A stretch of DNA of 64,000 bases from an uncultured Gemmatimonadota bacterium (GTDB taxonomy: Bacteria > JAAXHH01), in assembly GCA_951812955.1 (NCBI GenBank), contig OX638340.1:1952001-2016000 (forward strand), in the 5' to 3' direction. Of this stretch, positions 6,384 to 53,272 are shown piece by piece. A model generated the notes under the pieces. It was not told the DNA's origin. It ran no database searches and saw nothing but the letters and a program-made list of their open reading frames with translations. Position 1 is the first letter of the stretch. Each line of letters begins with the position of its first letter. The position numbers and the translations under genes are program-made.

Positions 6384-7346
6384 ATGCCAGACCGACAACG
6401 CATTGTAATACCCGGTGACGATCCGCCCCAGATGCAGGGATCACCCCACCTGGAACGCCTTGAGGCTTACGGAGAAGTCGTCCTGTACACCGATCGTCCC
6501 GAGACTTCTGATGAGAAAATCGAGCGGGTCAAGGGCGCCGGGGTGATGATCAATTCCCGGGGACTCGTCAAATGGCCCGGTGACGTCCTGCGTTCGCTGC
6601 CGGATCTCCGCATGATCGCGACTTGTTCGATCGGCGTCGACAGTTTCGATCTTGTCGCGGCGCGGGAATGCGGCATCGCCATATCCAACCAACCGGGACG
6701 GACGGCGCCGGTCGTGGCGGAACATACCTTCGGCCTGATGTTCGCCCTCGCGAAGAGAGCGGCGTACTTCACGGGCGCCATGAAAGCCGGCCAATGGCCG
6801 CGACTGGACGCCTACTACCTAAAGGGGAAGACGCTCGGGGTCATCGGAACGGGTCCAATCGGATCGGAGTTGGCGAAGCTGGCGGGCAGCGTGGGGATGG
6901 ACGTGATCGCCTGGACGTACAACCCGTCGGACGAAAGGGCCAGGGAGATCGGGGCGGCCTACGTGGAACTCGACGAACTATTGAGCAGGTCGGACGTGGT
7001 GTCGCTGCATGTCAGGCTTACGGAGGATAGCAGGCACATGATCGACAGTGCATCGCTGGGAAGCATGAAACCGGGCGCGCTGCTGATCAACTGCGGCCGG
7101 GGAGGCCTGGTGGATACGGACGCGCTGGTGGAAGCGCTGAGCTCGGGGCATCTGGGCGGCGCAGCCCTGGACGTCTTCGAGGAAGAGCCCCTGCCCGCGG
7201 ATCATCCCCTGCTCGGCATGGAGCAGGTCGTGCTCACCCCGCACTGCGCGGACATGACGCCCGAAGGGGTCGAACTGCTCAACGAAGGCGCGGTGGACAA
7301 CGTCATCGCATTTCTCGAAGGTCGTCCCCGGAACCTGGTGGTCTGA
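6384..7346 (+). CDS. D-isomer-specific 2-hydroxyacid dehydrogenase family (phosphoglycerate dehydrogenase/hydroxypyruvate reductase-like)
   Basis: The NAD-binding motif is 'GKTLGVIGTGPIGSELAKLAG'. The catalytic region is 'LINCGRGGLVDTDALVEAL ... LDVFEEEP ... LTPHCA' (His/Glu/Arg triad context). Confidence 0.75.
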   Translation: MPDRQRIVIPGDDPPQMQGSPHLERLEAYGEVVLYTDRPETSDEKIERVKGAGVMINSRGLVKWPGDVLRSLPDLRMIATCSIGVDSFDLVAARECGIAISNQPGRTAPVVAEHTFGLMFALAKRAAYFTGAMKAGQWPRLDAYYLKGKTLGVIGTGPIGSELAKLAGSVGMDVIAWTYNPSDERAREIGAAYVELDELLSRSDVVSLHVRLTEDSRHMIDSASLGSMKPGALLINCGRGGLVDTDALVEALSSGHLGGAALDVFEEEPLPADHPLLGMEQVVLTPHCADMTPEGVELLNEGAVDNVIAFLEGRPRNLVV

Positions 7347-38221: not shown

Positions 38222-39085
38222 TCAAATAATGCGTACGCCAGCCTCTGCCGCGATACGCCGGACGTTGGCAACCGCCGTCGGGATCTTGTCCTCGGGCAGA
38301 TGTTCGACTAGCATGTAGCCGTCAGGATGGAGCGCTTCCCAGCGCCGCACGGCCGTGACGAGGTCGAGTTCGCCGGCGCCGGGGACTTCTTCGTTCATGT
38401 GAATGACGAAGCCGGGTTCCACGCTGATGTCCTTGATATGGGCGACGGTCGAGATCGGTCCCATGACGTCGAATATGCGGTTCAAGCGTTCTGCGCTGTT
38501 GTACACCTGTGCCAGGGACTGGAAGTGGTTCACGAAGTCCATGACCACGCGCAGCCGGTCGGACCCGACGGCGTCTACCACCTGCCGGTTGATTTCCGGG
38601 GACCCCATTATCGTGAGCGCGTGGGTCTCGACCACGACGTTCATCCCCTCCGCCTCCGCCTTGTCCGCGACACGGGACAGGGTGTCGATCAGCACCTCCA
38701 GGCGCCCGGGTTCGTGGTTCTCGGGCGCGGGGTCGTAGGAACCTCCGGGGTTCAGGCTGCCGGTCCGGATGAGCACGTTGTGCGCCCGGAGCGCGCTGCC
38801 CACTTCCAGGCCGCGGTGAATGATCCGTACGACCCGTTCCCGGACCGAAGCCTCCGGATCGAACAGGCATTCGCGGTACCCTACACCGAACTGGGCCAGT
38901 TCCAGACCCAGGTTACCGTAGAGATCGTTCACCCGGTAGCAATCCGATGTCGTCAACTCGTCCAGGATCTCGCCGGGACCGTGATAGCAGGCGGAAGTAA
39001 CCTCCAGATCCAGCGCTTTTCTCAATACCTCTTCCGTTACGGCCCGGGGATCTCCCGGTACGTAGCCCACGACACCCAGACGCAT
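38222..39085 (-). CDS. Sugar phosphate isomerase/epimerase (xylose-isomerase-like TIM barrel)
   Basis: A 287-aa protein with the acidic/His metal-site spacing of the AP_endonuc_2 fold ('VVETHAL', 'MDFVNHFQ', 'HIKD'). Confidence 0.55.
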   Translation of the reverse strand: MRLGVVGYVPGDPRAVTEEVLRKALDLEVTSACYHGPGEILDELTTSDCYRVNDLYGNLGLELAQFGVGYRECLFDPEASVRERVVRIIHRGLEVGSALRAHNVLIRTGSLNPGGSYDPAPENHEPGRLEVLIDTLSRVADKAEAEGMNVVVETHALTIMGSPEINRQVVDAVGSDRLRVVMDFVNHFQSLAQVYNSAERLNRIFDVMGPISTVAHIKDISVEPGFVIHMNEEVPGAGELDLVTAVRRWEALHPDGYMLVEHLPEDKIPTAVANVRRIAAEAGVRII

Positions 39086-39118
39086 GCGATATTCCTTTCT
39101 ATATCCGTTTGAAGTCGT

Positions 39119-39625
39119 TCAGTCCCCGATGACCACCAGCACGGCGTTTTTATCTACCGTATCCCCTTCGCCGATCCGGATCTCTTTGACGGTTCCACTC
39201 GCGTGGGCGCGCAATTCGTTCTCCATCTTCATGGCTTCGATGACGACCACGCCCTGGCCGCTCTCCACCGTATCGCCCTCGGCCGCGGCTATCGACACGA
39301 TGCGGCCTGGCATGGGCGCCTTGATCTGTTCCCCTCCTGCACGGCGCCGGGACTTGACCTGACCGCGCAACCTGGCCAGTTCTTCGTCTTCCACGGCGAC
39401 CGCGGACGACACGCCATTGACCGTGACCTCCCGTTGCTCGCCCTGGGTCGCCGCGACTGCCGTATATGACCTTCCATCGATAAGCAGGGAATACAACTGG
39501 TCCCCTTGAATCGAGGCCATGTCGATTTCCAGCTGCCTGCCGTCAATACGCAGCGCGACCCGTCCGTCCGCGTCGTCCAGGCTGACCGAATAGGTGGTTC
39601 CATGAATCGTGACGAGATAGCTCAA
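39119..39625 (-). CDS. accB: Biotin carboxyl carrier protein
   Basis: The C-terminal biotinyl domain carries 'VVVIEAMKMENEL'. Confidence 0.85.
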   Translation of the reverse strand: MSYLVTIHGTTYSVSLDDADGRVALRIDGRQLEIDMASIQGDQLYSLLIDGRSYTAVAATQGEQREVTVNGVSSAVAVEDEELARLRGQVKSRRRAGGEQIKAPMPGRIVSIAAAEGDTVESGQGVVVIEAMKMENELRAHASGTVKEIRIGEGDTVDKNAVLVVIGD

Positions 39626-39711
39626 TGCTACTCCTTACACCCGCGGCCAGCCAGCGCTGTGGACAGCGCGCTTCCATTCTTTGAATCTGGCAACCGGACA
39701 CGGAAAGACCG

Positions 39712-41226
39712 TCATCGTTCCCGTCTCATGGCGTCCCGACGTCCGGTCAGTTTCCACGGACTCTCCCCTGACCTGTCGGTTCCGTCCCCGCCGGCTCCGA
39801 TCGGCATCGCCCTTTTCGCCTCCCGGTGTTTCATGATCGCGGCGAAAGCCGCTGCGATATGACGCTCATCGGCCCCGGCATCCTCGTCCGGCCCCATGGT
39901 CTCGACGAAGGAAGTCGTATAATCGCCGGAAGTGAATCGGGGGTCCGCCAGGGCCCGGAGGTGAAACGGAATGGTGGTTTTGATACCGCCGATATCGTAC
40001 TCACCCAGGGCTCTTTTCATGCGGGCGATGGCCTCTTCCCGCTTCTCGGCCCACACGATCAGTTTGGCGATCATGGGATCGTAGTAGATCGGCACCTCGT
40101 AACCCGCGCAGAAACCGCTGTCCAGCCGGACCCCGGGCCCCCCGGGCTCGCCCAGGCGCGTAACCACGCCGACCGAGGGCATGAACTGCGCGTTGGGGTC
40201 CTCGGCGGAGATGCGGCATTCCAGGGCCGCACCGAGGAACTGCACGTCTTCCTGCTTGAAGGGCAGGGGCATGCCGGCGGCTATTTCTATCTGCCGCCTG
40301 ACCAGGTCCTGTCCGGTCCGCAGTTCCGTGACCGGGTGCTCGACCTGGAGACGGGTGTTCATCTCTAGAAAGTAGAACTGTCGGTCCCGGTCCACGATGA
40401 ACTCCACGGTACCGGCGTTGGTATACCCTACGGCCTCGGCGGCCCTGACCGCCGCCTCGCCCATGGCGTTTCTCATCGCATCGTCGAGTACGCAGGATGG
40501 GGACTCCTCTATGAGTTTCTGATGGCGGCGCTGTATCGAACATTCCCGTTCGCCGAGATGCACCACGTGACCGTGTTGGTCGGCGAGCACCTGGAACTCC
40601 ACGTGACGGGGCTCCACCACAAATTTCTCAAGGTAGACCGTGGCATCGCCGAAGGCGGACTGGGCCTCGGAGCGCGCGGTACGCAGGGCGGCTGCCAGAT
40701 CGTCCGGAGCATCCACGACGCGCATGCCCTTGCCGCCACCGCCCATGGCCGCCTTGACGAGGACCGGGTAGCCGATGGATTCGGCCACGCCGATGGCGTC
40801 CCCGTCGTTTTCGATCCCTTCTTCGGTTCCCGGTACGACCGGCACGCCGGCCCGGCTCATGGTCTTCCGTGCCGCGGTCTTGCTTCCCATGGTCCGCATG
40901 GCCTCGCCGGAAGGACCGATGAACGCTATGCCCGCCTCGGCACAGCGATCGGCGAATTCCCCGTTTTCGGAAAGAAACCCGTATCCCGGGTGTATCGCGT
41001 CGGCTCCGGCCTTTTCGGCCGTTTCGATGATCCGGTCCATGCGGAGGTAACTGTCCGAGGAAGGTGCGTCTCCAATGCAATATGCCTCGTCGGCAAACTG
41101 GACATGGAGGGCCGTACGGTCCGCTTCCGAGAACACGGCCGTCGCTTCAATACCCATCTCCCGGCAGGTGCGGATCACCCGTACGGCGATCTCACCGCGA
41201 TTGGCGATCAGGATTTTCCGAAACAT
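39712..41226 (-). CDS. accC: Biotin carboxylase subunit of acetyl/propionyl-CoA carboxylase
   Basis: It begins 'MFRKILIANRGEIAVRVIRTCREMGI' and has the ATP-grasp motifs 'GGGGKGMRVV' and 'EMNTRLQVEHPVTE'. Confidence 0.9.
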   Translation of the reverse strand: MFRKILIANRGEIAVRVIRTCREMGIEATAVFSEADRTALHVQFADEAYCIGDAPSSDSYLRMDRIIETAEKAGADAIHPGYGFLSENGEFADRCAEAGIAFIGPSGEAMRTMGSKTAARKTMSRAGVPVVPGTEEGIENDGDAIGVAESIGYPVLVKAAMGGGGKGMRVVDAPDDLAAALRTARSEAQSAFGDATVYLEKFVVEPRHVEFQVLADQHGHVVHLGERECSIQRRHQKLIEESPSCVLDDAMRNAMGEAAVRAAEAVGYTNAGTVEFIVDRDRQFYFLEMNTRLQVEHPVTELRTGQDLVRRQIEIAAGMPLPFKQEDVQFLGAALECRISAEDPNAQFMPSVGVVTRLGEPGGPGVRLDSGFCAGYEVPIYYDPMIAKLIVWAEKREEAIARMKRALGEYDIGGIKTTIPFHLRALADPRFTSGDYTTSFVETMGPDEDAGADERHIAAAFAAIMKHREAKRAMPIGAGGDGTDRSGESPWKLTGRRDAMRRER

Positions 41227-41234
41227 GTATCCTC

Positions 41235-42785
41235 TTACAGTGGAATGTTCCCGTGTTTCTTGGGTGGATTCGTATCTCGCTTGTTTTTCAGCATCTCCAG
41301 CGCGGAAATGATGCGGGGACGGGTCTCCTGGGGCTGAATCACTTCGTCGATGTATCCTATTTTCGCCGCGATGTAGGGATTGTCGAACTTCTCCCTGAAT
41401 TCGTCGGTCAGCGATTCCCGCAGGGCGTCGGGATCATCCGCCTCGGCAAGCTCCCTTCGGTATAGGACGTTCACCGAGGCTTCCGGACCCATGACGGCAA
41501 ACTGTCCGGATGGCCATGCGTAGTTGATGTCGGCGCGTATATGCTTGCTGTTCATCACGCAGTAGGCCCCGCCGTACGCCTTGCGCGTGACGACGGTGAT
41601 TCGTGGCACCGTGCTCTCGCAGAACGCGTAGAGCAGTTTTGCGCCTTCCTTGATGATGCCGCCGTGTTCCTGGCCGACGCCGGGGAGAAACCCGGGAACG
41701 TCTTCGAAAACGACCAGCGGAATATTAAAGGCGTCGCAAAAGCGCACGAACCGCGCGCCTTTGATCGACGCGTCGATGTCCAGCACCCCTGCGAGGGAAG
41801 CGGGCTGATTTGCGACGATGCCGGCGGTCCGGCCATTGAACCTGGCAAACCCCACGACGATATTGTCGGCGAATGCTCCATGCACTTCGAAGAAATCGCC
41901 GTGGTCCACCACTCGGTGGATCACGTCCTTGATGTCGTAGGGTTTGTTGGCGTCATCGGGTACGATGCCGGCGAGTTCCTCGTCCATGCGGTCCGGGTCG
42001 TCCGCAGGGCTCAGGCGAAGCGAGTCCTCCATGTTGTTTGAGGGCAGGTACGCCATGAGCTCCTTCACCATGGTCAGGCACGCGGGCTCGTCGGACGCGG
42101 AAAAGTGGGCGACGCCCGTCACGGAATTGTGAACGTGCGCACCGCCCAACTCGTCGAACGTCACCTCTTCGTGGGTCACCGCGCGGATGACGTCCGGACC
42201 GGTGATGAACATGTAACTGGTATCTTCCACCATGAAGACGAAGTCGGTCATCGCCGGCGAATAGACCGCGCCGCCCGCACAGGGTCCCATGATCACCGAA
42301 ATCTGCGGGATCACGCCGGAAGCCAGCACGTTGCGCAGGAAGATATCGGCATAGCCCGCGAGGCTGACCACCCCTTCCTGGATACGCGCGCCGCCGGAAT
42401 CCTTCAGACTGATCACCGGCGCCCCGTTCTTCATCGCCAGATCCATGAGCTTGCAGATCTTCTCCCCGTAGGCCTGGCCCAGCGAACCGCCGAACACCGT
42501 GAAGTCTTCCGACACGACGTAGACGGTCCGTCCGTCGATCGTCCCGTAGCCCGTGATCACGCCGTCGCCCAGGATTTCCTTGCCCTCCATGCCGAAATCA
42601 CGGCAGTCGTGCGTCACGAGGGCGCCGATCTCCTCGAAGCTGCCTTCGTCCAGGAGAAAGGCCACCCGTTCCCTGGCGGTCCATTTCCCCGCCTCGTGCT
42701 GCCGGGCGATGCGCTTCTGGCCGCCGCCTTCGGCCGCCTTTTTCCGTAGCGCGTCCAGGTGTTTCATTTTTTCGGACATGGACAT
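41235..42785 (-). CDS. Acyl-CoA carboxylase carboxyltransferase subunit (propionyl-CoA carboxylase beta / methylmalonyl-CoA carboxyltransferase family)
   Basis: The N-terminus is 'MSEKMKHLDALRKKAAEGGGQKRIARQHEAGKWTARERV'. Duplicated crotonase-like CT halves are present. Start was trimmed from the ORF-track 43007 to the Met at 42785. Confidence 0.8.
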   Translation of the reverse strand: MSMSEKMKHLDALRKKAAEGGGQKRIARQHEAGKWTARERVAFLLDEGSFEEIGALVTHDCRDFGMEGKEILGDGVITGYGTIDGRTVYVVSEDFTVFGGSLGQAYGEKICKLMDLAMKNGAPVISLKDSGGARIQEGVVSLAGYADIFLRNVLASGVIPQISVIMGPCAGGAVYSPAMTDFVFMVEDTSYMFITGPDVIRAVTHEEVTFDELGGAHVHNSVTGVAHFSASDEPACLTMVKELMAYLPSNNMEDSLRLSPADDPDRMDEELAGIVPDDANKPYDIKDVIHRVVDHGDFFEVHGAFADNIVVGFARFNGRTAGIVANQPASLAGVLDIDASIKGARFVRFCDAFNIPLVVFEDVPGFLPGVGQEHGGIIKEGAKLLYAFCESTVPRITVVTRKAYGGAYCVMNSKHIRADINYAWPSGQFAVMGPEASVNVLYRRELAEADDPDALRESLTDEFREKFDNPYIAAKIGYIDEVIQPQETRPRIISALEMLKNKRDTNPPKKHGNIPL

Positions 42786-42895
42786 GGAATGCGATGCTCC
42801 TGCCGGGCGTGCGATTCTCCTACCGGGCACGTGCATTCGAATCACGGGGAACGCCAGCGCCTGGCCCGACTTATGCTTTTCTACGTCGTATACCA

Positions 42896-43789
42896 CTATA
42901 CTACGTCGAAATCCAGTGCCTCCAGGCCGGCTCGAAGCCGGTCTTCCCCTTCCCCGGTCAGCCGGGCAGTTGGCGGGCGCGGCGGCCCGACAGGTATTCC
43001 GCGCCATTCGAGCATCTTCTTGATTCCGGCCAGGACACCCACCGAGATCAGCAGCGCGATGACCCGGTTGGCCTGGACCTGCAATGCCATGGCCTCCTGG
43101 ATGCGTCCGTTTCGAAAAGCGTCATGCATACTCAGGAACATCCGGGGCATGATGTTGTACGTGGAACCGATGGCCCCGTCGCTGCCCATCACGAATCCCG
43201 CCACGCACATCTCGTCCGGCCCCGTGATGGCGTTCAGTCCACCGCCAGACAGGTCGACGAGTTGCTGGAAGACGAAGAAATTCGGGTCCGTGAACTTGAT
43301 GCCGGCGAAGTTGGGCACCGCGTCCATGGCCTCCAGGAACTGCGCGGGCGTTACCTGCCCGTCGACGTCGCGCGCGAGCCAGTAGACGTAGAATGGGACC
43401 GTGGACGCCGCACCGATGGCGGCGTAGTGCCGCACGGCCGCCGACAGGTCGTTAGGCTGATCCGCGGGTGCGACCGATGCGACCGCGTCCGCGCCCAGCG
43501 AGTCCGCTTCCGAGGCAAGGGTGACGGCGTCCTCCGTGGTCGTGCCCCCCACGTGAAATACCACCGGGACCTGGCCCGCGACGTCGCGGGCCACGATCTC
43601 GCACATGGTGCGCCGTTCCGGGACCGACATCTGTCGGCCCTCGCCCGTTCCGCCGGTGATGAAGAAACCATCGCTTCCGGCGTCCACCAGGTGGCGTACG
43701 AGGGGCGCCACCCGATCGGTCGAAAGGGCGAGCCCGTCATCGAAAGGGGTGCAGAGGGCCGGCCAGATGCCTTGGACCAGTTTGGACAT
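42896..43789 (-). CDS. DapA/NAL-family class I aldolase (dihydrodipicolinate synthase / 2-keto-3-deoxy-sugar-acid aldolase family)
   Basis: It has 'GIWPALCTPF', 'DGFFITGGTGEG', and a Schiff-base Lys context 'IKFTD'. Start was trimmed to 'MSKLVQG'. Confidence 0.65.
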   Translation of the reverse strand: MSKLVQGIWPALCTPFDDGLALSTDRVAPLVRHLVDAGSDGFFITGGTGEGRQMSVPERRTMCEIVARDVAGQVPVVFHVGGTTTEDAVTLASEADSLGADAVASVAPADQPNDLSAAVRHYAAIGAASTVPFYVYWLARDVDGQVTPAQFLEAMDAVPNFAGIKFTDPNFFVFQQLVDLSGGGLNAITGPDEMCVAGFVMGSDGAIGSTYNIMPRMFLSMHDAFRNGRIQEAMALQVQANRVIALLISVGVLAGIKKMLEWRGIPVGPPRPPTARLTGEGEDRLRAGLEALDFDVV

Positions 43790-44115
43790 AGCTGCATTCC
43801 GAGTGAAATAACGGGCGAAATGGAAAATACGAAGCATGCGGGTTCGAAGCTGGTTACTTCCTTGCTTCCACCCGTGTGTTCACGGAATTACGAATCTTCA
43901 GAATGCCGGAAAATAAAGTGATTCGGTATCAACGTCAAGGGTTCTCGAATGTGAACAACATCCGGGGATTCGACGGAGACACATCGATCTCGAACCTGTC
44001 CGGACTACGGTATTATTGGTCGTTAAGGAGAATCAGCGAAACCGCCTATGTGGGGCTGCAGGCGGGTAACGGATGGAGGCTGTTATTGGTCAAGCCGGTC
44101 CGGCAGCGGCGACGA

Positions 44116-45288
44116 TTACCACTCGCCGGACCGTTCATCGTGTGCGTGGTCTGGCAACAGGTACGTCAAGCCGGCTTCGTCGTACGCCGACGCTACGAGA
44201 AGCGTCGCAAAATCCGAAAGGGCCGCGGAGTCATTCCTTCGTAACTGCGATCTCAATTTCTGTATACGCTTGTCTATCCGGTACAGCAACAGCGGGAAGG
44301 GGAATCTGTTCGTGGGAAACCTGAGTTGGTCGGCGAGTTCGTTCCCTATGAGGCCGCGGGAAACAGGATATATGATTTTGTTTACCAGCTTTTTCCTTTC
44401 TTCCTTGTCCTCAATGCCAGCGACCAGCGGGGCTGAGTTGATCAGCGCATTTGCCATGATGATCGCCTCTGGCGTGGGAGGAGGCTCACTCAGAGAACCG
44501 ATCCGGTACATATGCAGGGCGTGGACTTCGTCGGTATAGAGGATGGTTTCGGGGATACCCATGAGGTAACCGGAGTAGCGCCATACGTCGTGGAAACCGG
44601 CTCGCTCCTCCTTGCTGTAACGAGCCCCCAGCGCCTGCGAGTGTTTGACGGTGCGCGCAGAGAAACAGGCGACGGCATAGCCCAGATGCGCGGCGCTTAG
44701 CGGCACCCCCCATGCGTCATGCTGCCATTCTTCAGTCTTTCCCAGCAGCAACCGAACCTGAGCGTGTATAATCCGGATACGGACAGATAGCTTCCACCCG
44801 TCGCCCTTGCGGTCCAGTCCACCAGGCCAGAATATCTCCATCTGATGACGGTTGTTTTGCTTCAGCCGCCGGACGCCATTGTCGAATATACGCCCGGTTT
44901 GCACGAAGGACTTGCTGATCAGCGTCGAAAAACCGTCTACCAGTACACCAGTGACGAAAGCCGAAAGGATGGCGACCGAGTTCTTTTGGAATGCGCGGAC
45001 GCCCGGTCCGAACGCGTCGCGATCGAGCCAGTCCGGATCGGGTTGCGGCGCGTCGGCAAAAAAATCGCGCAACGATTTCGGCGCGTCCCTCAACCCGTTT
45101 CGGTCTTCCTCCATTCCAGCGTGAATGAACTGGTGCACCTTCTGCTGAGGCAGCGACTCCAGATCTGCCACTATCGTGTCCATGACGGGGTCGCCGACCC
45201 AGGTGTGGGCAATGTAGTTGTCCGCAGCCGCCTGGTCGACCAATCGAGCCTTTTCGTAACCAGGTTTGTAATCAGATGGTATCTTCAT
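44116..45288 (-). CDS. DUF2236/MpaB-Lcp-like putative oxygenase
   Basis: The 390-aa soluble protein has a general fold-level resemblance to the ER-bound oxygenase MpaB / latex-clearing-protein family. Recognition is weak. Confidence 0.35.
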   Translation of the reverse strand: MKIPSDYKPGYEKARLVDQAAADNYIAHTWVGDPVMDTIVADLESLPQQKVHQFIHAGMEEDRNGLRDAPKSLRDFFADAPQPDPDWLDRDAFGPGVRAFQKNSVAILSAFVTGVLVDGFSTLISKSFVQTGRIFDNGVRRLKQNNRHQMEIFWPGGLDRKGDGWKLSVRIRIIHAQVRLLLGKTEEWQHDAWGVPLSAAHLGYAVACFSARTVKHSQALGARYSKEERAGFHDVWRYSGYLMGIPETILYTDEVHALHMYRIGSLSEPPPTPEAIIMANALINSAPLVAGIEDKEERKKLVNKIIYPVSRGLIGNELADQLRFPTNRFPFPLLLYRIDKRIQKLRSQLRRNDSAALSDFATLLVASAYDEAGLTYLLPDHAHDERSGEW

Positions 45289-45357
45289 AAGAAGGCAATC
45301 AATCAGGACAGGATGTTTCGTGCAGGTTATTGTTCCGAGATGGATTCCGGTCCACGC

Positions 45358-46644
45358 CTAGAAGTGGTAATCCAGGCTGAATTGAACGAAGCCGTCCCGG
45401 CGTAAGTCATAGTAGAGATCCGACGCATCGATATTTGTTATCGCGACCGACTCCAGGTTCACGGACCACGTGTCCGTCAGGCGGCGCGCCAATTCCAGTC
45501 CGTAAATGCGCTGACTTCGATCCAAATCATGCAGCACACTTGCCGTCACCTCCGTGCCCTGGACGTCGTTCAACATGAACCGCAGGGCGGCGAAGAGGTC
45601 GTTTTCGTAGAAATTGGTCGCTCGGCGGCCGCGCCCGTCACGGTCCCATTCGACGAATAAGGTAAGGTCGGAGTCCGAACCCAACAAGGAAAACAACGAG
45701 TATTCGCCGCCTACTACAAAGGCGTTGTAGTCCTCTTCCGTGCTCAGCAGGTTGCGTGCGCCGGTCCGTCGAATCGCCTCGAGCTTAAGGAGAAGGGAAC
45801 CGGTAGTCCACTGCGCGTCCACACCGAACTGGCGGATCCGTTCATACGTCGGATACAACGCAGGCGGACCAGGCGGACTCGACTGACCAGGCTGACCACC
45901 GCAATCCAGACAAAGACCCAGGGTCGGATCGCGGGCCGTGCCGTCGAAGACACTGACGCCGAAGTCCATCAGGCCAAGGGTATGACTGTATCGCGCGGCA
46001 AAATCCGGGTGCCATTTGCCGGACGATCCTTCGTATTCCACCCGCTCATCGTCGACGATGAGCGATGCGCGCAACCGTCCCTTGCTCCCCGGGAATGTGC
46101 GAGCCCGATGATAGGTCATTCCCAGCAATTCAAGCACGCCCCAGTTCGAAGACCAGGTTACGTAGGCCATCGGTTGCCCCATCCGGGTTTTTTCATCGGG
46201 ATGTTCGACCAGGTCGATCTGGTTGACGATATCCACCAGGTGGCGGGATTCCACGACACCCCAGAAAACGCGGTCTATTCCCAGCCGCAGTTCCCATTCC
46301 CCATTTCCGAGTGCACCGGTTAACAGGATGTAGGCCTCCCGCAGATCGAAATGGGTACGACGGGCATCGGCGCTGTCGTACCTGAAGAAGGGCGTAATGG
46401 AAAGTACCCGGCCCGCTTCGTCCTCGAGATAAAGGTTGGGAATCGCAACGAAACCGCTCGCGTTGGAACCCTGGTCCGGGAAGAGGGCTGGCTGGGGAAA
46501 CCACCTGCTCTCCGCGCTCAGCCGGCCCGTAAAATCGATTTCGGCGATTGCGGCCTGGGCACGAGAGGAAACCGTGTATACCGAAACTCCGATCAAACAG
46601 ACACCGAAACACAGCAGGCGAACCGTGATCCGTGACGGCATCAC
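45358..46644 (-). CDS. Outer-membrane beta-barrel protein (DUF1302-like) with signal peptide
   Basis: The cleavable signal is 'LLCFGVCLIGVSVYTVSSRAQA'. Alternating amphipathic strands run throughout, and the C-terminus ends in aromatic 'LDYHF', an OMP beta-signal. Confidence 0.6.
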   Translation of the reverse strand: MMPSRITVRLLCFGVCLIGVSVYTVSSRAQAAIAEIDFTGRLSAESRWFPQPALFPDQGSNASGFVAIPNLYLEDEAGRVLSITPFFRYDSADARRTHFDLREAYILLTGALGNGEWELRLGIDRVFWGVVESRHLVDIVNQIDLVEHPDEKTRMGQPMAYVTWSSNWGVLELLGMTYHRARTFPGSKGRLRASLIVDDERVEYEGSSGKWHPDFAARYSHTLGLMDFGVSVFDGTARDPTLGLCLDCGGQPGQSSPPGPPALYPTYERIRQFGVDAQWTTGSLLLKLEAIRRTGARNLLSTEEDYNAFVVGGEYSLFSLLGSDSDLTLFVEWDRDGRGRRATNFYENDLFAALRFMLNDVQGTEVTASVLHDLDRSQRIYGLELARRLTDTWSVNLESVAITNIDASDLYYDLRRDGFVQFSLDYHF

Positions 46645-47477
46645 CGCACCCGCCTCAGGCCGGTCCGGGTAAAGTCTCGTTCATCGATGTCGGTCCGGAA
46701 CTGGTAATCCGTCCATACCAGGTCGGTACTCTTCCCCGTCAGGTGGTTTACCATGACCATCTTTCCGGCTCGCCAGTAGCTTTCCAGGTATTGTTGGTAT
46801 TCGCCCAATGTAAGCGTCTTGAGATGGGCGTCTTTGCGGTCGAAGTACTCCACCTTCCAAACCCGAAGCTCAGCCTTGTCGCGCCAGACCACCTGGCGGC
46901 GGTAGACCGATCCTTTTTCCACCGGCACGCGTTCGGTTACCACGCAGTCCAGACCGTCGCCGCAGGGTTCGTCACGCAGATACCTGTAGGTGAACTTTTC
47001 CACTTCCTGGACAGTCATGTCCTCGTAGGTAAACTCGCTTCCCATGAAGGATCCCGATCGGTTGGACGAACTGATGCGCTTGACGCGCTTCAAGGCCGGC
47101 AGGTAGAGCCATTGATCGTCCGACCGGTCCTTGTGGCCGTGTATGAGTAGCGCGGTGCCCCTGGCGTCACGCGGCTGGTCGAAGACGAAGAGACTCATGT
47201 TGCCGTCGTTTTCCGCCTCGAGCACTTTTACGCGCACTTCGCGGAGGCTTTCCTGGCCTTTCTTGTTGCGCAGAACCATGCTCATGCCGGCCGCGAAATT
47301 CCCGAAACCTTCGTCCTGCTTCCGGGCGTCGCGGGCAATCTGCAGCCCCTTTTCTTCCTCCTGGTCGGCGGCCGATGCCTCCAGTAGCGGCATGCCTGGT
47401 AATACGAACATCGCCAGGAGGGTGAATCGGGCGGCGCGCAGTCCGCGCACCGGCCGCAATAGTCTATCAAATATCAT
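46641..47477 (-). CDS. LolA-like 'outer membrane lipoprotein-sorting' family protein (DUF1329/LolA_like)
   Basis: A signal peptide 'FTLLAMFVLPGMPLLEASA' precedes a ~250-aa soluble domain. The ATG overlaps the stop of the upstream RND gene (ATGA). The ORF track extends further upstream to 47645, into the RND gene. Confidence 0.5.
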   Translation of the reverse strand: MIFDRLLRPVRGLRAARFTLLAMFVLPGMPLLEASAADQEEEKGLQIARDARKQDEGFGNFAAGMSMVLRNKKGQESLREVRVKVLEAENDGNMSLFVFDQPRDARGTALLIHGHKDRSDDQWLYLPALKRVKRISSSNRSGSFMGSEFTYEDMTVQEVEKFTYRYLRDEPCGDGLDCVVTERVPVEKGSVYRRQVVWRDKAELRVWKVEYFDRKDAHLKTLTLGEYQQYLESYWRAGKMVMVNHLTGKSTDLVWTDYQFRTDIDERDFTRTGLRRVR

Positions 47478-49759
47478 GGTTTTCTCCTGTCGAGCGCCAT
47501 AAGCAGCGGAGGAAGAAGCAGAAAATCGGCTATGATCGCAAATGCGATGGTAATGGTCACCAGCAGTCCGAGGGCCCATGACACCTGGAATCCCGACCCC
47601 GCGAAGGCCAGGAAGCCCGCGGAAAGGACCAGTGTCGTGGTCCACAGCGCCTTCCCCACGGATCGGAAGGTAACACGCACCGCTTCTTCCGCCGACAGAC
47701 CTTCCTCTTTGCGCGCCTTGAGGTACCTGCTGAGAAAGTGGATCGTATCGTCCACGACGATGCCGAATGCGACGACGATGACCACCGATGAGGCGATGCC
47801 CACTTCGCCGACCAGGTGTCCCCAGAGCCCAAAGCTCATGGCTGCCGGTACGAAATTGGGCAGCAGACTGATGAGACCGAACCGGATACTCTTGAAGACC
47901 ACGACCAGGATGATCGATATGAACGCCATGGCGACCACCGTTCCGCGCAGCATCGATTCGATATTGCGCTGGGAGATATGGGCGAACACCACATTGAGTC
48001 CGGTGGCTTCGGTGGCAAGGGCCGGGGCGTTTTCGCGGAGCCAGGCCTCCCCCCGACTGGCCAGGTCCTGCAGATCCTGACTCGACCGGCCGCGAATCAC
48101 GACCGTCATGCGCGTTGCGGACCTGGAAACATCGATCCGGTCGTTCAGGTCGCTGCCGAAGGGCAGAGACAATTCGTAGAGCAGCAGGTACTGCGAGGCA
48201 AGATCCTGTGCTTCGGGAATACGGAAGAAGGCCGGATCGTCTCCGTGCATGTTCTTGTTCAACCGTTTCATGATGTCCGAGAAGGCCTGCACGTGGCCCA
48301 CTTCAGGCTGACCCCGGTTCCATTCCGCGAAAGCCTCCACCTGACGGAGGTAATCAGGATCGGTGATCCCGCCTTCTTCCTCCGCGGCCAACGTATACTC
48401 GAAGGACAGCAATCCGGTCAGGTTTTCCATGACGAAATCCGTATCCCGCCGGAACTCGTAGCGTTCATCGAAGTAGTCCGGCCAACTGTCGGTCAGGTGG
48501 TTCCTGGGCACGCCGGTGATCAGGACGACTGTCAACAGCCCTACGGACCAAAGCAGCGGTTTTCGCCGAGAAACGACGAAATCACCCAGGCGATCGAAGA
48601 AGACAGGTTGCCGGGAACCAGCGGCACGGGCCCGCAGCGGAAGGACCGAAAGCAGCGCAGGAAGGAGCGTCATGGCGTAGACGTAGGTGATCATCACCCC
48701 GAAGGCCACGAAATTGCCGAGAATGTGAAACGGTGGCGAATCAGAGAAGTTCAGGCTGAGAAAACCGATCGCGGTGGTGATCGAGGCCAGGAACACCGGG
48801 TAGGCATTTGTTCTAATGGATTTCGCGACCGCCTCGTTCCGTTCCGCTCCGTCTCTAATCCCCGTCAGTGTATGCGTGATGATGTGTACCGCCTGGGCGA
48901 CGGAAATCGCCATGACAATAATGGGCACCCCTGAATTTACCGGACTGAAAACCGTATGGAACCAACCGGCGAACCCCATGGTCGTCGAGATCACGAAGCC
49001 TATCATGACGATGATGATGCCTGTTCCCAGAAAGGATCTCAGGAGTAAGGTCGAGGTGATCAGGATGAGGACGAAAACGATGGGCAGCAGGGTTTCAAGG
49101 TCGTCTTGGGTGGCATCGGCGAAGGCCCGGTTCATGACCACGTCGCCCGTCAGGTAGAAATCAACGTCGGGAGCGTCCACCCGTGCATCCTCCAGCATGA
49201 TGTCCAGGTAATCGGTGAGCTCCTTGACCGCCAGGTCCGGATCATCGCCCATTACGAAGTTGATCGCCAGTCCGGCCACCCGTCCGTCAGGAGAAACGAG
49301 TCGCCCCACCACTTCCTGGGAACCCAGCGCGATCGACTCGATTCGAACCAGGTCGGTATCGCTCAGCGACGCGGCGTCTTCAACAAGCGGTCCGACGATG
49401 AGATCATCTTCCATCGCCTCGCTGTGGAAGTAATTCGTGAGGGAATTTACCCGGGTGGAATATGGAGCGAGCCAGGCGGCTTCGGTAAGCGCTTCGACGA
49501 CACCCAGCGCATCGCGGGTGAAGACGGAACCGGTCCGGGGCGCGATGGCGACCAGGGCGGTATTGGAGGCAGCGTAGGTGTCCTCCAGCGCGTCGAAGGC
49601 GGCGAGTTGCGGATTGTCCTCGCCGAACATGACGCGATGTTCGTTGGAGACGGTTATGAAACGGCTACCGGCCGCCATGGCGAGCATGAATGCCAGCGAG
49701 AATACAATCACCAACCATCGGTGACGGAGTACCACGACGGTGTAACGGTCGAGATTCAA
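47474..49759 (-). CDS. RND-superfamily exporter (COG1033/MMPL-type, two 6-TM halves each with a periplasmic loop)
   Basis: A 761-aa protein with TM1 followed by a large loop, then a TM2-6 cluster, repeated twice. It has the conserved 'GIVVDD(T/A)IH' type motif ('GIVVDDTIHFLSRY'). Confidence 0.75.
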   Translation of the reverse strand: MNLDRYTVVVLRHRWLVIVFSLAFMLAMAAGSRFITVSNEHRVMFGEDNPQLAAFDALEDTYAASNTALVAIAPRTGSVFTRDALGVVEALTEAAWLAPYSTRVNSLTNYFHSEAMEDDLIVGPLVEDAASLSDTDLVRIESIALGSQEVVGRLVSPDGRVAGLAINFVMGDDPDLAVKELTDYLDIMLEDARVDAPDVDFYLTGDVVMNRAFADATQDDLETLLPIVFVLILITSTLLLRSFLGTGIIIVMIGFVISTTMGFAGWFHTVFSPVNSGVPIIVMAISVAQAVHIITHTLTGIRDGAERNEAVAKSIRTNAYPVFLASITTAIGFLSLNFSDSPPFHILGNFVAFGVMITYVYAMTLLPALLSVLPLRARAAGSRQPVFFDRLGDFVVSRRKPLLWSVGLLTVVLITGVPRNHLTDSWPDYFDERYEFRRDTDFVMENLTGLLSFEYTLAAEEEGGITDPDYLRQVEAFAEWNRGQPEVGHVQAFSDIMKRLNKNMHGDDPAFFRIPEAQDLASQYLLLYELSLPFGSDLNDRIDVSRSATRMTVVIRGRSSQDLQDLASRGEAWLRENAPALATEATGLNVVFAHISQRNIESMLRGTVVAMAFISIILVVVFKSIRFGLISLLPNFVPAAMSFGLWGHLVGEVGIASSVVIVVAFGIVVDDTIHFLSRYLKARKEEGLSAEEAVRVTFRSVGKALWTTTLVLSAGFLAFAGSGFQVSWALGLLVTITIAFAIIADFLLLPPLLMALDRRKP

Positions 49760-50472
49760 AAATGCGGCCCCTCTGTTTTATTCGTCCTTCGCAATGGTAA
49801 TTTAGTTCATACTAACGTAATATACACCACTGTATTGTCAAGATTTCAGATTTAAATCGAGTTTATTCCTAAATTCCCGACTAATACATTATGGCGTTTG
49901 TATCGCCTTTATTTTCGCCAATCACTGCACACGTGTACATTCAGAATTTAACTGGAAGCGCATCTCGGGTCAATATTAACCAGCTATACGGCTGATCTGA
50001 ATGTACGACTGATCGGTGCGAACGGTGTGGTGGGCTTTCACCATGCACAATACTGGTCCAGGTTGCACCGTAATTAAACTAGTAACCGGTCTGCCCCGAC
50101 GAGGCGCCACGGGGCCGTTACCGGTTTGCACTGCGAAGATAAAGCAGCACCGGAGTTCCGGTCTGCTCTTCGATGCATTTAGGCGTGTACCATCTACCGC
50201 CTCAAAAAGTACAGATTGAACGCTGTTGTGTCCGCGTCGGCCGTGAATGGAACAGGGTTCGATCCCAATATCCCGTCAAGTCGAGTCAACCATCGGCCAT
50301 TGTATCCTTGAGCTGGCGGAGCGGCAACCAGGTTGTCCATTCGCAGGCTCAGGATAGCGGAGTTCTCTTCCCCGGAGATCCCGGGAATACATCCGTGATG
50401 GATACATCAGACGCGCCTGATCGGCCCTGTGCGTTCAGGCGCCTTCAGTGGAAAGGCAGCTACTTTGAAACC

Positions 50473-51180
50473 ATGAACACGCAATCAAAAAGCCCAGGAG
50501 ACGTCAATCTGATACACGCCTGCCTTGAGGGTCGATCAGATGCGCAGAGTCAACTCTACAATCTTTACTTCACACAGGACAAGCCTGTTCACTTCTGGGT
50601 ATACCAGAAAGCATACTGGATTCCAGCAGGTGAAAAGGAGGATATCCTGAATGATATCTACATCGCGGTCATTCAAAGCCTGCCCCAGTTCGAATTTCGC
50701 AGTGCATTGGGCACCTATATTACCCGCATTGCAAAGATCAAGTGCCTGGACGCAATGCCTTCTCGGCTAGGCGTCGCCCGGGGGAAGGGGATCAAGTTCG
50801 TCGATATCGACTGGTTCGCATCGAACAACGAGTCAGGGTTTCAGATCGAAGACACGGATCCCAACAACAGACCGGACCGGTATTTGAGACAAAGGGAAGA
50901 AGAAGAACTGGTTTTCCTGTTGCATACGGCCCTGAAGTACTTTACGGGACAGCGATGCAGGAATGTCCTCTACATGTACGTCAAAGAACTCAGAGGCGAA
51001 ATGAGCAGGGAGGACATTGCGGAATCGCTCGGAGTACCGGTTAAACGCATGGGACAGATGATCTACGACTGCATGTATCGGCTTCGCCGTAAGGTACAAA
51101 GTAGATTTCGAGATTACGAACATTTTGCCAATTGCGTATGTGAAGGTATTCAACGTCCCAAACCCAATAACAAGGAGTAG
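50473..51180 (+). CDS. ECF-type sigma-70 family RNA polymerase sigma factor (low-GC gene)
   Basis: Region 2 is 'ILNDIYIAVIQSLPQFEF'. The region 4 HTH is 'MSREDIAESLGVPVKRMGQMIYDCMYRLRRK'. Start was set at the internal Met. The surrounding DNA is ~50% GC. Confidence 0.65.
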   Translation: MNTQSKSPGDVNLIHACLEGRSDAQSQLYNLYFTQDKPVHFWVYQKAYWIPAGEKEDILNDIYIAVIQSLPQFEFRSALGTYITRIAKIKCLDAMPSRLGVARGKGIKFVDIDWFASNNESGFQIEDTDPNNRPDRYLRQREEEELVFLLHTALKYFTGQRCRNVLYMYVKELRGEMSREDIAESLGVPVKRMGQMIYDCMYRLRRKVQSRFRDYEHFANCVCEGIQRPKPNNKE

Positions 51181-51182
51181 CC

Positions 51183-51869
51183 ATGCATCAGCGAGTTGCG
51201 GGGCGCGGCAACTTCGACAGTTTGCCGGATCGTACTCAGATCGCTGACCTCCTGCGAAAATACTGTGAGCTGCTGGTTTCTTCATGTCCTACCTCGGAAA
51301 CACTGTTGGTATTTCATGAAGATCCGAATCAGCTTCCCACATGCGAGAGAAAGACCCTGGGAGGGCACCTTGGAATCTGTCTCGACTGCAGGGACAAACT
51401 TCGATGGCTGGAGGAATCTGAAGCTTCGTCCTATACCGATTCCATCGCACGTGTAATCTGGTATATGCTCAATGTACACCATCCATCCGAGGTGGCAGCC
51501 TCAAAGTACTTCTCATCCGCCAGGAGTGCAGGCAATCCCGACTCGCTTTCCACACAGAATTTGCAACCGGATGCTGCAAAAACGGCCACAACCCGCAAGA
51601 CTTCGGCGCCTTTTTTCGCCAGCGGGGATGGAGCGTTGTGTGGGGAAATCCATCAGGACAGGAATCAACGGGTGTATTTAAGGATTTTTCGGCTGCCCAG
51701 GTCGTTTCAGTGGCATGCCCTGCATATTCGAGCAATAACGTTTGACCGTCGCGTACTGGTGAGCAGGTCCAGGACCATATCGGGACCGAAATTCCCGATC
51801 GATCATCCTCCTCGCATTACGCCCGGTGACATGGACAAGGTCGAACTCGGTCTGATCCCGCTGCGTTGA
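51183..51869 (+). CDS. Putative soluble zinc-binding anti-sigma factor
   Basis: It starts 2 nt after the sigma stop. The N-terminus 'CPTSE...H...CERK...HLGICLDC' gives a C/H/C/H/C/C cluster resembling ZAS/ChrR-type anti-sigma domains. No TM segment is visible. Confidence 0.4.
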   Translation: MHQRVAGRGNFDSLPDRTQIADLLRKYCELLVSSCPTSETLLVFHEDPNQLPTCERKTLGGHLGICLDCRDKLRWLEESEASSYTDSIARVIWYMLNVHHPSEVAASKYFSSARSAGNPDSLSTQNLQPDAAKTATTRKTSAPFFASGDGALCGEIHQDRNQRVYLRIFRLPRSFQWHALHIRAITFDRRVLVSRSRTISGPKFPIDHPPRITPGDMDKVELGLIPLR

Positions 51870-51879
51870 GCGGGATCAG
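51852..51879 (+). terminator. Perfect 11-bp inverted repeat hairpin (CTGATCCCGCT-GCGTTG-AGCGGGATCAG) spanning the anti-sigma stop codon
   Basis: Read from the sequence. There is no U-tract, so an intrinsic terminator is uncertain. A second hairpin lies at 51991-52015 (ATGCGCGAAGC-AGG-GCTTCGCGCAT). Confidence 0.3.
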
Positions 51880-52099
51880 CGCCGTTCCGGTGTATTCGAC
51901 CGGATTCCACTGGTTGTTTGCGGTACGTAACCCAGGCAATAAGATGTTGACAATCGACTGGGGGCGAGTACGTTACGAAGTATCTGAATGATGCGCGAAG
52001 CAGGCTTCGCGCATATACGGAATTGGAGGAATACCGGTACCTTCAAACCGGCCGGGTCGATGATCCCGCCATGGTACCGTCCATGAAGGAACCAACTGC

Positions 52100-53272
52100 A
52101 TGGAGATGGTTTATCCGAGGAGGAAAACGCGGGAAGTCCGCGTAGGAAACATCACGATCGGCGGCCAGCATCCCATTGTCGTGCAGTCGATGATCACGGA
52201 GAACACGCGGGACGTCGCAGCGTGTGTGGAAGCGATCATCCGATTGCATGAACTGGGATGTGAAATCGTACGAGTGACCACACCTACGCTCGCGGACGCC
52301 CACAGCCTGCGGGAAATCAAGCATACCCTCGTTCTGAATGGTGTGGACGTGCCCCTGGTAGCGGATGTTCATCACCAGGGAACCCGAATAGCCGAGGAAG
52401 TCGCCAGGTCTGTAGACAAGGTACGTATCAACCCCGGCCTGTTCGTATTCCAGCGTCTGGCAGATTCCATCGAATACTCACCCGAGGAATTCGAGGCCGC
52501 GAGACAAAAGGTGGCCGATGATCTGGCCCCCGTAATCAAGGTCTGCCGGGAGCGGGACATCGCCATGCGCATCGGTGTGAACCACGGATCCCTTTCGGAC
52601 CGCATGACCGTGACATACGGAGACACGCCAGAGGGCATGGTGGAATCCGCGCTGGAATTCATTCGAATTTGCGAGTCGCACGACTACAGAAACCTGATCG
52701 TATCGCTTAAAGCGTCCCGCGTGCCCGTCATGATTCAGGCCAACCGCCTCATGGCCGGCCGTATGGACGAAGAGGGGATGGACTATCCGCTGCACCTGGG
52801 TGTCACGGAGGCCGGTGACGGCGAGTATGCCCGGGTCAAGTCGACCTCCGGAATAGGCACCCTGCTGGCAGAAGGTCTCGGCGACACCATCCGGGTATCG
52901 CTCGCCGAGGATCCCGCCAAAGAAATCCCGGTCTGTTACGATATTCTCCAGTCTCTGGGCCTGCGACGTACCAAGGTGGAGTTTATCGCATGTCCTTCCT
53001 GCGGACGAACCAAATTCAACCTGGAAAACGTGCTTGCGGAGGTCAAGGCGGCCACCGACCATCTCGCGGGTCTCGACATCGCCGTAATGGGATGCATCGT
53101 CAACGGCCCCGGAGAGATGGCCGATGCCGATTACGGGTATGTCGGACGCGCCAACGGGATTATCTCCCTCTACCGCGGGCGTGACTGCGTCAAGATGAGT
53201 GTTCCGCAGGAACGGGGTGTCGAGGAACTGGTCGACCTGATCAAGTCGGATGACCGTTGGGTAGATCCTTGA
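52100..53272 (+). CDS. ispG: 4-hydroxy-3-methylbut-2-enyl diphosphate synthase (flavodoxin)
   Basis: It begins '[27 protein letters not shown]' and ends with the C-terminal Cys triad 'CPSCGR ... [10 protein letters not shown]'. Confidence 0.9.

Follow-up and report, generated by a model that had tools for sequence, protein, structure and literature searches.

A four-gene pump, carrier, barrel and oxygenase module with recurrent links to squalene and isoprenoid genes: a candidate envelope-spanning lipid system

Gene sets that combine a pump of the RND type, a LolA-like periplasmic protein and a DUF1302-like outer-membrane barrel are common in diderm bacteria, but for none has the cargo been proven. 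Among studied systems, AmeABCD of Castellaniella defragrans comes closest. Its parts are a DUF1302 barrel, a DUF1329 protein of the LolA superfamily, an HAE3 pump and a BNR-like protein; deletion makes cells less tolerant of monoterpenes, and the system also affects the accumulation of Nile Red (PMC6394551). DUF1302, DUF1329, BNR and RND (COG1033) genes are cofit in Shewanella, Kangiella and Pseudomonas; the role suggested for them by Price et al. is 'export of a cell wall component' (10.1101/072470). An alternative proposal for the same cluster is the use of fatty esters (10.1101/2020.07.04.188060). A compact variant of this system, in which the BNR protein is gone and an oxygenase is gained, is found at positions 44116-49759 of a 64,000-nucleotide stretch of DNA (here termed the window) from contig OX638340.1 of an uncultured Gemmatimonadota bacterium (assembly GCA_951812955.1). 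Its four genes encode an RND pump, a LolA-fold carrier, an outer-membrane beta-barrel and a haem oxygenase of the MpaB/Lcp family. Related modules in many genomes lie beside genes for squalene and isoprenoid precursor synthesis. The module may thus span the envelope to handle a hydrocarbon lipid of the isoprenoid class that the cell itself makes. The most likely cargo is squalene, as such or as a derivative formed by oxidation or cleavage, and a probability of about one half is assigned to this reading.

In the module as in the AmeABCD/cofitness cluster, a single cassette unites an HAE3-type pump with an outer-membrane barrel and a periplasmic protein of the LolA superfamily, and both have a tie to apolar terpenoid or lipid compounds. 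They differ in several respects. AmeABCD carries a BNR/COG4447 propeller, whereas the neighbours of the module between 39.7 and 53.3 kb all belong to other families and no BNR protein recurs among the annotated neighbour families of related loci. The carrier has 278 amino acids and is of the short PF17131 type, compared with approximately 450 amino acids for the DUF1329 protein of the AmeABCD type, and the barrel has 428 amino acids and scores below the DUF1302 cutoff, compared with approximately 600 amino acids. Unlike the AmeABCD type, the module includes an MpaB-type oxygenase as part of the unit. The neighbours are also different, isoprenoid biosynthesis here and monoterpene or fatty-ester catabolism there. 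The four-component AmeABCD architecture was therefore rejected for this locus, on account of the sub-cutoff barrel and the missing BNR partner. A preliminary description of the window, made from the sequence alone, had assigned the genes to the DUF1302/DUF1329/RND module type; strictly taken, the locus does not belong to the DUF1302/DUF1329/BNR type.

All four genes are on the minus strand and together fill the 44116-49759 segment. The pump gene (47474-49759; 761 amino acids, TTG start) is the first of the operon and is followed by the carrier gene (46641-47477; 278 amino acids, with the ATG at 47477), the barrel gene (45358-46644; 428 amino acids, GTG start) and the oxygenase gene (44116-45288; 390 amino acids, ATG start). 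An AGAGGGG sequence is found just 5' of the TTG start of the pump gene, and the TTG is kept in two other loci (L003 and L017). The carrier open reading frame, taken mechanically, extends past the ATG at 47477 to position 47645. The pump stop and the carrier start overlap in an ATGA at 47474-47477. The carrier stop and the barrel start overlap by four nucleotides in a GTGA at 46641-46644, or by one nucleotide if an alternative barrel ATG at 46641 is used instead. Carrier and barrel genes also abut or overlap in most other loci, as judged from tblastn coordinates. A gap of 69 nucleotides separates the barrel gene from the oxygenase gene, and this spacer has no terminator-like site. The four genes form one co-transcribed operon-like unit whose coupling is shown by the overlaps; the co-orientation and both overlaps are as the preliminary description had them. 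A scan for generic sigma-70-type promoters and terminators over 43700-50600 gave sites not above those in shuffled sequences. The G + C content of the module is approximately 57-59%, that of the divergent intergenic region upstream of it approximately 50-53%, and that of the downstream housekeeping DNA (roughly 38-44 kb) 61-65% in much of its length.

A scan with the barrel profile, with one genome taken per species, yielded 80 loci with barrels 50-92% identical. Co-occurrence was counted by tblastn mapping in the 73 loci that have at least 6 kb on either side of the barrel homologue. The LolA-like gene is present in all 73, the pump gene in 70 and the MpaB gene in 64, an arrangement far beyond chance, and the conserved co-occurrence that had been expected of the module is thereby established. 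The loci span at least six phyla; record labels include Latescibacterota, Gemmatimonadota, several orders of Acidobacteriota, Binatia, Nitrospinota, Alphaproteobacteria and Opitutales, among others.

The usual gene order is MpaB-RND-LolA-barrel; in the window and in L003, L017 and L093 the MpaB gene follows the barrel gene instead. It is found at 44116-45288 in the window, at 11453-12602 in L003 and at 11406-12464 in L017, and at approximately 5500-6870 in L004-L016. The L003 gene is matched in two pieces, which may represent a frameshift. The MpaB protein of the window is a different paralogue from the one encoded upstream of the pump in sister genomes, with an identity to the latter of 45-47% in most sister loci and of 73% in L024. 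Proteins of the window type in metagenome-assembled genomes (MAGs) of Alphaproteobacteria, Chloroflexi, Dehalococcoidia and Palauibacter are 70-77% identical, and such identity across several phyla suggests recent horizontal spread. The gene has changed position and paralogue without being lost, and such replacement speaks for an MpaB protein being required by the transporter. The pairing of MpaB with a pump persists even where there is no outer membrane or where the pump is different, as an MMPL-MpaB pair occurs alone in a Chloroflexi MAG, and Palauibacter carries MpaB with an AcrB-type pump and a squalene-synthase-like gene. In three loci of Terriglobia and Versatilivorator (L050, at 5669-6766, L059 and L064) a conserved protein of 365 amino acids is encoded directly upstream of the pump, in the usual MpaB slot; it has no match among Pfam or NCBIfam models.

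The recurrent neighbours of the module are genes of isoprenoid and squalene synthesis. A gene of the methylerythritol phosphate (MEP) pathway, ispG, ispH or dxs, is found by tblastn within 10 kb in 34 of the 73 loci (ispH in 21, ispG in 13 and dxs in nine), where about 1% per locus is estimated to arise by chance, given three such genes out of some 4,500. When all neighbouring open reading frames were clustered without bias, a similar set emerged beyond the synteny of the window's clade: IspH at 18 loci, SQS_PSY at 15, IspG at 13, DXS at nine and an HpnE-like amine oxidase at seven. All 13 IspG neighbours are in the window's clade. In the window itself, ispG (gcpE), which encodes the penultimate enzyme of the MEP pathway, is at 52100-53272 on the plus strand (PF04551, E = 5e-126; TIGR00612, 485.9 bits against a cutoff of 280). 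It lies downstream of a sigma/anti-sigma gene pair, a position kept in the 13 clade loci.

One Binatia locus has the order dxs-MpaB-RND-LolA-barrel-ispH-hpnE-hpnD-hpnC, and its HpnC, HpnD and HpnE proteins exceed the NCBIfam equivalog cutoffs. In loci of Vicinamibacterales, Terriglobia, Latescibacterota, Opitutales and Palauibacter, a single enzyme of 320-375 amino acids replaces hpnCDE; its best model is squalene synthase, with a score under the cutoff of that model. Genes for squalene synthesis, by hpnCDE or by the single gene, recur in at least 10 gene orders and at least six phyla. As two enzymatic routes to squalene are found beside one module in so many arrangements, squalene itself is the common denominator. 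The module is often co-directional with and placed between the biosynthetic genes, for example dxs-MpaB-RND-LolA-barrel or barrel-dxs-ispH. Motifs of triterpene cyclases (QW repeats and DxDD) were found in none of the selected open reading frames of roughly 80 loci, within 10 kb on either side. It had been guessed earlier that the substrate is a hopanoid-, carotenoid- or polyisoprenoid-like compound, and the synteny with dxs, ispG, ispH, hpnCDE and squalene synthase in many phyla lends this independent support.

Two Terriglobia loci (L050, at 14817-19360, and L059) encode a GPP34-cytochrome P450 fusion of 700 amino acids, an HlyD-type protein and a KshA-like Rieske oxygenase. The set adjoins squalene-synthesis genes and ispH, with an AcrB-type pump upstream. 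These look like triterpenoid-modifying enzymes without a visible cyclase. In the 64-kb window, neither a P450-GPP34 fusion nor a Rieske oxygenase was found outside the module.

Known relatives of the module oxygenase that share the DUF2236 domain, namely Lcp, MpaB' and t-anethole oxygenase, carry out oxidative C=C cleavage. Isoprenoid chains are the substrates of two, among them fungal MpaB', which cuts a farnesyl chain. The module enzyme passes the PF09995 MPAB_Lcp_cat model (60.3 bits, cutoff 23, E = 3.7e-16) and matches Lcp K30 by sequence (E = 9e-6), with an identity of only 17-18%. Its predicted structure is all-helical (pLDDT 73, pTM 0.77). In a Foldseek comparison, Lcp entries 5o1l/5o1m are matched with E = 4e-7 to 1e-6, TM scores of 0.62-0.67 and a probability of 1.00, and the only significant fold neighbours in the PDB are Lcp and then t-anethole oxygenase 8s1j. 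The features in common with Lcp, MpaB/MpaB' and t-anethole oxygenase are the DUF2236 domain, the Lcp-like all-helical fold, a proximal histidine and flanking arginines. In an alignment of 69 module-linked MpaB homologues with one Lcp fragment, the conserved residues R141, H175, R172 and R179 are aligned to Lcp R164, H198 (the proximal haem ligand), R195 and R202. R141 and H175 are each kept in 66 of the 69 homologues, as is N145 at the position of Lcp T168. In LcpK30 numbering, R164, T168 and H198 are near-invariant residues of DUF2236; Lcp is a catabolic polyisoprene-cleaving enzyme, and it and t-anethole oxygenase, the two solved structural relatives, both cleave C=C bonds (PMC6311187). The N-terminus of the module oxygenase, MKIPSDYKPGYEKARL, has no signal peptide and no twin-arginine (Tat) motif. 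The enzyme is therefore predicted to be intracellular, unlike Lcp, which is secreted. The coupling of its gene to an RND pump gene is a further difference from Lcp.

The pump matches the PF03176 MMPL model in two stretches (144.6 bits, cutoff 20.5, E = 4.5e-42), and there are hits to Sterol-sensing and Patched SSD as well. Among NCBIfam models the best is TIGR00921 HAE3, at 152.8 bits and under the cutoff of 351.9. A hydropathy scan displays 12 hydrophobic segments and two periplasmic loops of approximately 180 amino acids. Transmembrane segment (TM) 1 is at about residues 12-35, the first loop at 36-215, TM2-6 at 216-375 and TM7 at 400-418, and in the C-terminal half the second loop is at 419-600 and TM8-12 at 607-750. 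Among the conserved residues embedded in the membrane are D220, D670 and D745. The nearest solved relatives are MmpL5/MmpL4, which are distant (38 bits). The protein had been described as an MMPL/HpnN-type exporter, of which the MMPL part stands, by the model passed and by the 12 segments and two loops. An HpnN identity was rejected, as the TIGR03480 and NF052374 models give 95.0 bits against a cutoff of 751.85 and 43.5 bits against 1100. The pump is likewise far from the MmpL3 and BstA equivalog models, with only 15 bits against the BstA cutoff of 1400. To our knowledge, the RND pumps that have been characterised all move substrates outwards, and for this reason transport at this locus is taken to be outward.

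The carrier passes the PF17131 LolA_like model (198.6 bits, cutoff 30, E = 9.5e-59) and has a partial match to PF07044 DUF1329 as well. Over residues 41-276, which are the mature domain, it is homologous to PDB entry 3bk5 (E = 1.2e-81), with approximately 58% identity by hand count of the printed alignment. The 3bk5 entry is from structural genomics and is presumably a Vibrio parahaemolyticus protein. By this homology, the carrier would have a hydrophobic ligand cavity. Further solved relatives are 9tp6, 4z48 and 3buu, of which 9tp6 is LolA3 of Porphyromonas gingivalis (PMC13103446). A Sec signal peptide ends in LLEASA/ADQ and there is no cysteine in the N-terminal 60 residues. A lipobox-like motif ([LVI][ASTVI][GAS]C) is found in 14 of 79 carrier homologues. 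The absence of a lipobox cysteine indicates that the carrier of the window is a soluble periplasmic protein; the earlier label of 'lipoprotein' is thus withdrawn and that of a periplasmic LolA-fold carrier retained.

The barrel protein has a signal peptide (...SSRAQA/AIAE), and its C-terminal end, ...LDYHF, is an aromatic beta-signal. In an AlphaFold2 model (pLDDT 71.5, pTM 0.69) it forms a closed antiparallel barrel with an even number of strands, 18, whose short turns and long loops lie on opposite sides. An outer-membrane barrel with a beta-signal, as first proposed, is consistent with these features. The signature FWGVxESxHLVDIVNQxDLVEHP, with the family form FWGVxESxHLVDxxNQ, is at residues 127-149 in predicted loop 3. 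Together with the arginine-rich block that follows (125-213) it is the most conserved stretch of the protein and lies in the poorly modelled external loops 3 and 4. By analogy with porin loop 3, these loops might fold into the lumen or gate it.

The DUF1302 model (PF06980) gives the barrel 19.5 bits, under the cutoff of 23.2 and over residues 88-164 only, so strict membership of DUF1302 was rejected. Precomputed PF06980 matches are present on some homologues, and by its sub-cutoff score the barrel is distantly related to the curated family and not a member of it. Among 1.84 billion representative proteins, a profile search yielded 2,756 clusters, defined at 50% identity, with E<=1e-3, of which 1,177 have E<=1e-30. 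The barrel family is therefore a large one, and it has no Pfam model of its own. Some longer homologues carry an N-terminal AMIN, LysM, OmpA-like or Legionella_OMP domain; such domains were recognised in seven of 10, and three of 10 had no Pfam match. The possibility that long homologues are LolA-barrel fusions was rejected, as the N-terminal extensions that were recognised are other domains. AMIN, LysM and OmpA-like domains are peptidoglycan-binding modules of the periplasm, which provides independent support for an outer-membrane location of the barrel.

The family assignments support the architecture that had been envisaged, a trans-envelope conduit with its pump in the inner membrane, its carrier in the periplasm and its barrel in the outer membrane, joined to an oxygenase. 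A possible pathway is as follows. Squalene made from MEP-derived precursors would sit in the inner membrane, where the cytoplasmic MpaB/Lcp-type haem enzyme would oxygenate or cleave one of its trisubstituted C=C bonds. The proton-driven HAE3/MMPL pump would extract the lipid from the inner membrane into its own periplasmic domains. The soluble LolA-fold protein would then shield the lipid and carry it through the periplasm, presumably through physical contacts with pump and barrel, and the 18-stranded barrel would receive it for insertion into the outer membrane or release outside.

Several other systems bear comparison. HpnN is an HAE3-family pump that, like the module pump, is encoded beside ispH, dxs and hpnCDE-type genes, and in the HpnN literature as cited in two reports, its proposed role is the transfer of a squalene-derived lipid into the outer membrane (PMC12324291, PMC6394551). 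It differs in that HpnN is reported to work without a co-encoded carrier or barrel (PMC6394551). A further difference from hpn clusters is that the squalene-hopene cyclase (shc) motif was not found in the selected open reading frames of roughly 80 module loci, within 10 kb on either side. A 2025 survey of hopanoid-linked transport factors proposes HpnM, HpnS and HpnT, which are of other families. In Thalassolituus oleivorans, TOL_3187 is a fusion of MMPL and LolA-like sequences, and it and the adjacent gene for a porin-like protein, TOL_3188, are induced 42-fold or exclusively on a C28 alkane (PMC6304351), a compound in the size class of squalene (C30). Here also the three functions are encoded together, a likeness taken from their description. 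The fusion of pump and carrier supports their working as a unit, although in the module they are separate genes. No oxygenase is reported for T. oleivorans, and the context is growth on alkanes, not isoprenoid synthesis.

In aryl-polyene clusters and in the BstABC sterol transporters, an RND/MMPL pump and a periplasmic lipid-binding protein deliver the cluster product to the outer membrane. The coupling of pump and lipid-binding protein genes to a lipid pathway is the same as here. The carriers and outer-membrane partners are of other families, and there is no oxygenase of the DUF2236 family. Within the library searched, the literature gave no description of the module and no paper linking MpaB to MMPL pumps; of the DUF2236 literature found, none appears, by title and abstract, to concern transport.

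The pump-carrier-barrel cassette is also found in cultured marine bacteria. It is present on plasmid p1 of Pseudoalteromonas rhizosphaerae (L089), beside recombinase genes of the gamma-mobile-trio, with a barrel that is 35% identical and retains the signature motif. On plasmid pDSM109990_a of Sulfitobacter dubius (L090, 1-11814), the cassette is directly after a type I polyketide synthase and the barrel is 26% identical. These occurrences suggest a portable unit for lipid export whose cargo can probably be read from its neighbours. The two plasmid-bearing strains are tractable genetic hosts.

Several observations weigh against export of a squalene-class lipid. The 64 kb of the window contain ispG but no squalene synthase, hpnE, dxs or ispH, and in about half of the loci the 10 kb on either side are free of isoprenoid genes. 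Where dxs, ispG or ispH does adjoin the module, it may be the housekeeping copy, so that the link could reflect general isoprenoid or envelope homeostasis and not squalene. In the oxygenase, the distal residues K167/T168 of Lcp are replaced by a conserved Q144-N145 pair, and the position of Lcp E148, which we take to be the catalytic base, is a gap in the alignment; given these differences, the chemistry may not be C=C cleavage. The models of the oxygenase and the barrel are of only moderate confidence (pLDDT 73 and 71.5). The T. oleivorans data fit the handling of a growth substrate as well as export. In addition, many loci appear by their record names to come from MAG projects on sponge or coral hosts and may share the module by transfer, in which case the 73 loci do not represent 73 independent events.

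An unlikely alternative, though one with a real chance of being correct, is a defensive role: pump, carrier and barrel would expel exogenous hydrophobic toxicants dissolved in the membrane, such as terpenes and hydrocarbons of the host or the environment, and the oxygenase would detoxify the share that reaches the cytoplasm. This would parallel AmeABCD, which raises monoterpene tolerance and affects Nile Red accumulation (PMC6394551), and exposure to terpenoids is plausible for the many carriers that, by record names, are from host-associated MAG projects. The adjacent ECF sigma factor and redox-type anti-sigma factor of the window's clade would also suit a stress response. Defence leaves unexplained, however, the recurrence of dxs, ispH, ispG, hpnCDE and squalene synthase in many gene orders and the frequent co-directional placement of the module between biosynthetic genes. 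Distinctly improbable is a generic export cassette for an outer-membrane lipid or 'cell-wall component', independent of isoprenoids, to which MpaB and the MEP/squalene genes would be adjacent through shared envelope regulation or through hitch-hiking in horizontal transfer. It agrees with the proposal of Price et al. (10.1101/072470) and with the location of cassettes beside unrelated lipid pathways (the polyketide synthase of the Sulfitobacter plasmid) and mobile-element genes (the Pseudoalteromonas plasmid). Yet in other subfamilies the cassette is attached to different lipid pathways, which suggests that neighbours are a guide to cargo, and the linkage of MpaB (64 of 73 loci) and of isoprenoid genes outlasts many rearrangements and paralogue replacement, a persistence not predicted by hitch-hiking. 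Least probable of all is catabolism of long-chain isoprenoid or alkane hydrocarbons, in which the envelope parts would handle an external substrate and the Lcp-like oxygenase would cleave it for beta-oxidation: induction of TOL_3187/TOL_3188 on the C28 alkane as a growth substrate, the catabolic function of Lcp and the acyl-CoA carboxylase genes that closely follow the module in the window's clade all fit, but the RND pumps known to us work outwards, the oxygenase has no secretion signal, unlike Lcp, and the recurrent neighbours are biosynthetic and not of beta-oxidation, the carboxylase synteny being that of one clade only.

Upstream of the module, and divergent from it, the preliminary description had noted an extracytoplasmic function (ECF) sigma/anti-sigma pair that might control it. 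The ECF-type sigma factor gene is at 50473-51180 on the plus strand and encodes 235 amino acids, most likely from the ATG at 50473; the homologue in L001 is also called at 235 amino acids. It passes TIGR02937 sigma70-ECF weakly (45.0 bits, cutoff 42.9) and scores 21.8 bits with Sigma70_r2, whose cutoff is 24. A longer sigma factor of 335 amino acids starting at 50173 was rejected, as relatives do not keep the upstream start codon and a TGA interrupts the reading frame in L007. The apparent conservation of this 100-codon extension (50173-50472) arises because a conserved non-coding element lies there. The candidate anti-sigma gene, at 51183-51869 on the plus strand, encodes 228 amino acids. It has no Pfam or NCBIfam match, so the assignment is made by motif and gene position. 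The HxxxCxxC motif, HLGICLDC (H-x3-C-x2-C), is kept in seven of seven homologues and the protein has no hydrophobic or transmembrane segment, by which it resembles the cytoplasmic redox-sensing anti-sigma factors of the ZAS type. The pair adjoins the module only in the window's clade (14 of 73 loci), where control of the module by the adjacent sigma factor may be envisaged.

The divergent intergenic region, 49760-50472, has 713 nucleotides and contains a conserved non-coding element at 50040-50263 (core 50084-50216), tentatively assigned to the plus strand. The element, of approximately 220 nucleotides, shows 72-82% identity in every clade locus, only a few of which can be aligned in the intergenic DNA on its flanks. 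A block of 22 nucleotides is invariant in 13 of 15 sequences. The element folds as three hairpins; 85% of cells are paired, slid controls giving 30-48%, and compensatory change is seen at six pairs. Minimum free energy z-scores are -3.9 and -4.7 on the two strands, and G-U pairs favour the sigma direction. An Rfam scan of 43800-52200 at E<=1 gave no match. In a metagenome scan the element was found on three contigs only, all of the same locus type, and these provide no independent context for it. It is probably a three-hairpin structured RNA, and is a candidate for a new cis-regulatory RNA or an operator array. Reporter constructs of 49760-50472 should take the element into account. Its presence beside the ECF sigma gene and ispG offers a separate lead on the regulation of isoprenoid-related genes.

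On the other side of the module, genes in the same orientation at 38222-43837 encode a DHDPS-family protein, a carboxyltransferase, a biotin carboxylase, a biotin-carrier open reading frame and a xylose-isomerase-like TIM-barrel protein. This DHDPS/carboxylase/TIM-barrel gene order downstream of the module is kept in most of the window's clade. The carboxyltransferase open reading frame has an N-terminal extension that overlaps the DHDPS gene, and its true start is therefore probably near 42785. Sulfatase genes are found at 30802-32118 in the window and at 18806-20125 in L037, and are recurrent around the module in large Latescibacterota genomes. The sulfatases and the MAG names would fit a host-associated lifestyle, in sponge or coral.

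A broader scenario, more speculative and quite unlikely as a whole, is that of a cross-phylum pathway that would have spread horizontally in sponge and coral holobionts. The MpaB/Lcp-type dioxygenase would cleave squalene to apo-terpenoid aldehydes or ketones, and the products would leave through the dedicated RND-LolA-barrel conduit to act as signals, in defence or as modifiers of membranes. Control in the window's clade would fall to the new structured RNA and a redox-sensing ECF sigma/ZAS pair that would also drive ispG.

The movement of very hydrophobic isoprenoid lipids through the bacterial periplasm is only partly understood. The module offers the first concrete candidate substrate, a squalene-class lipid, for this type of transporter, and makes the cargo hypothesis testable. 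Its analysis also defines a barrel family of 2,756 clusters that is without a Pfam model, and points to a trait apparently common to several phyla in host-associated communities. If export of a squalene-class lipid is correct, it would provide a physiological role for the large bacterial DUF2236 family, which is now annotated only by analogy with rubber oxygenase.

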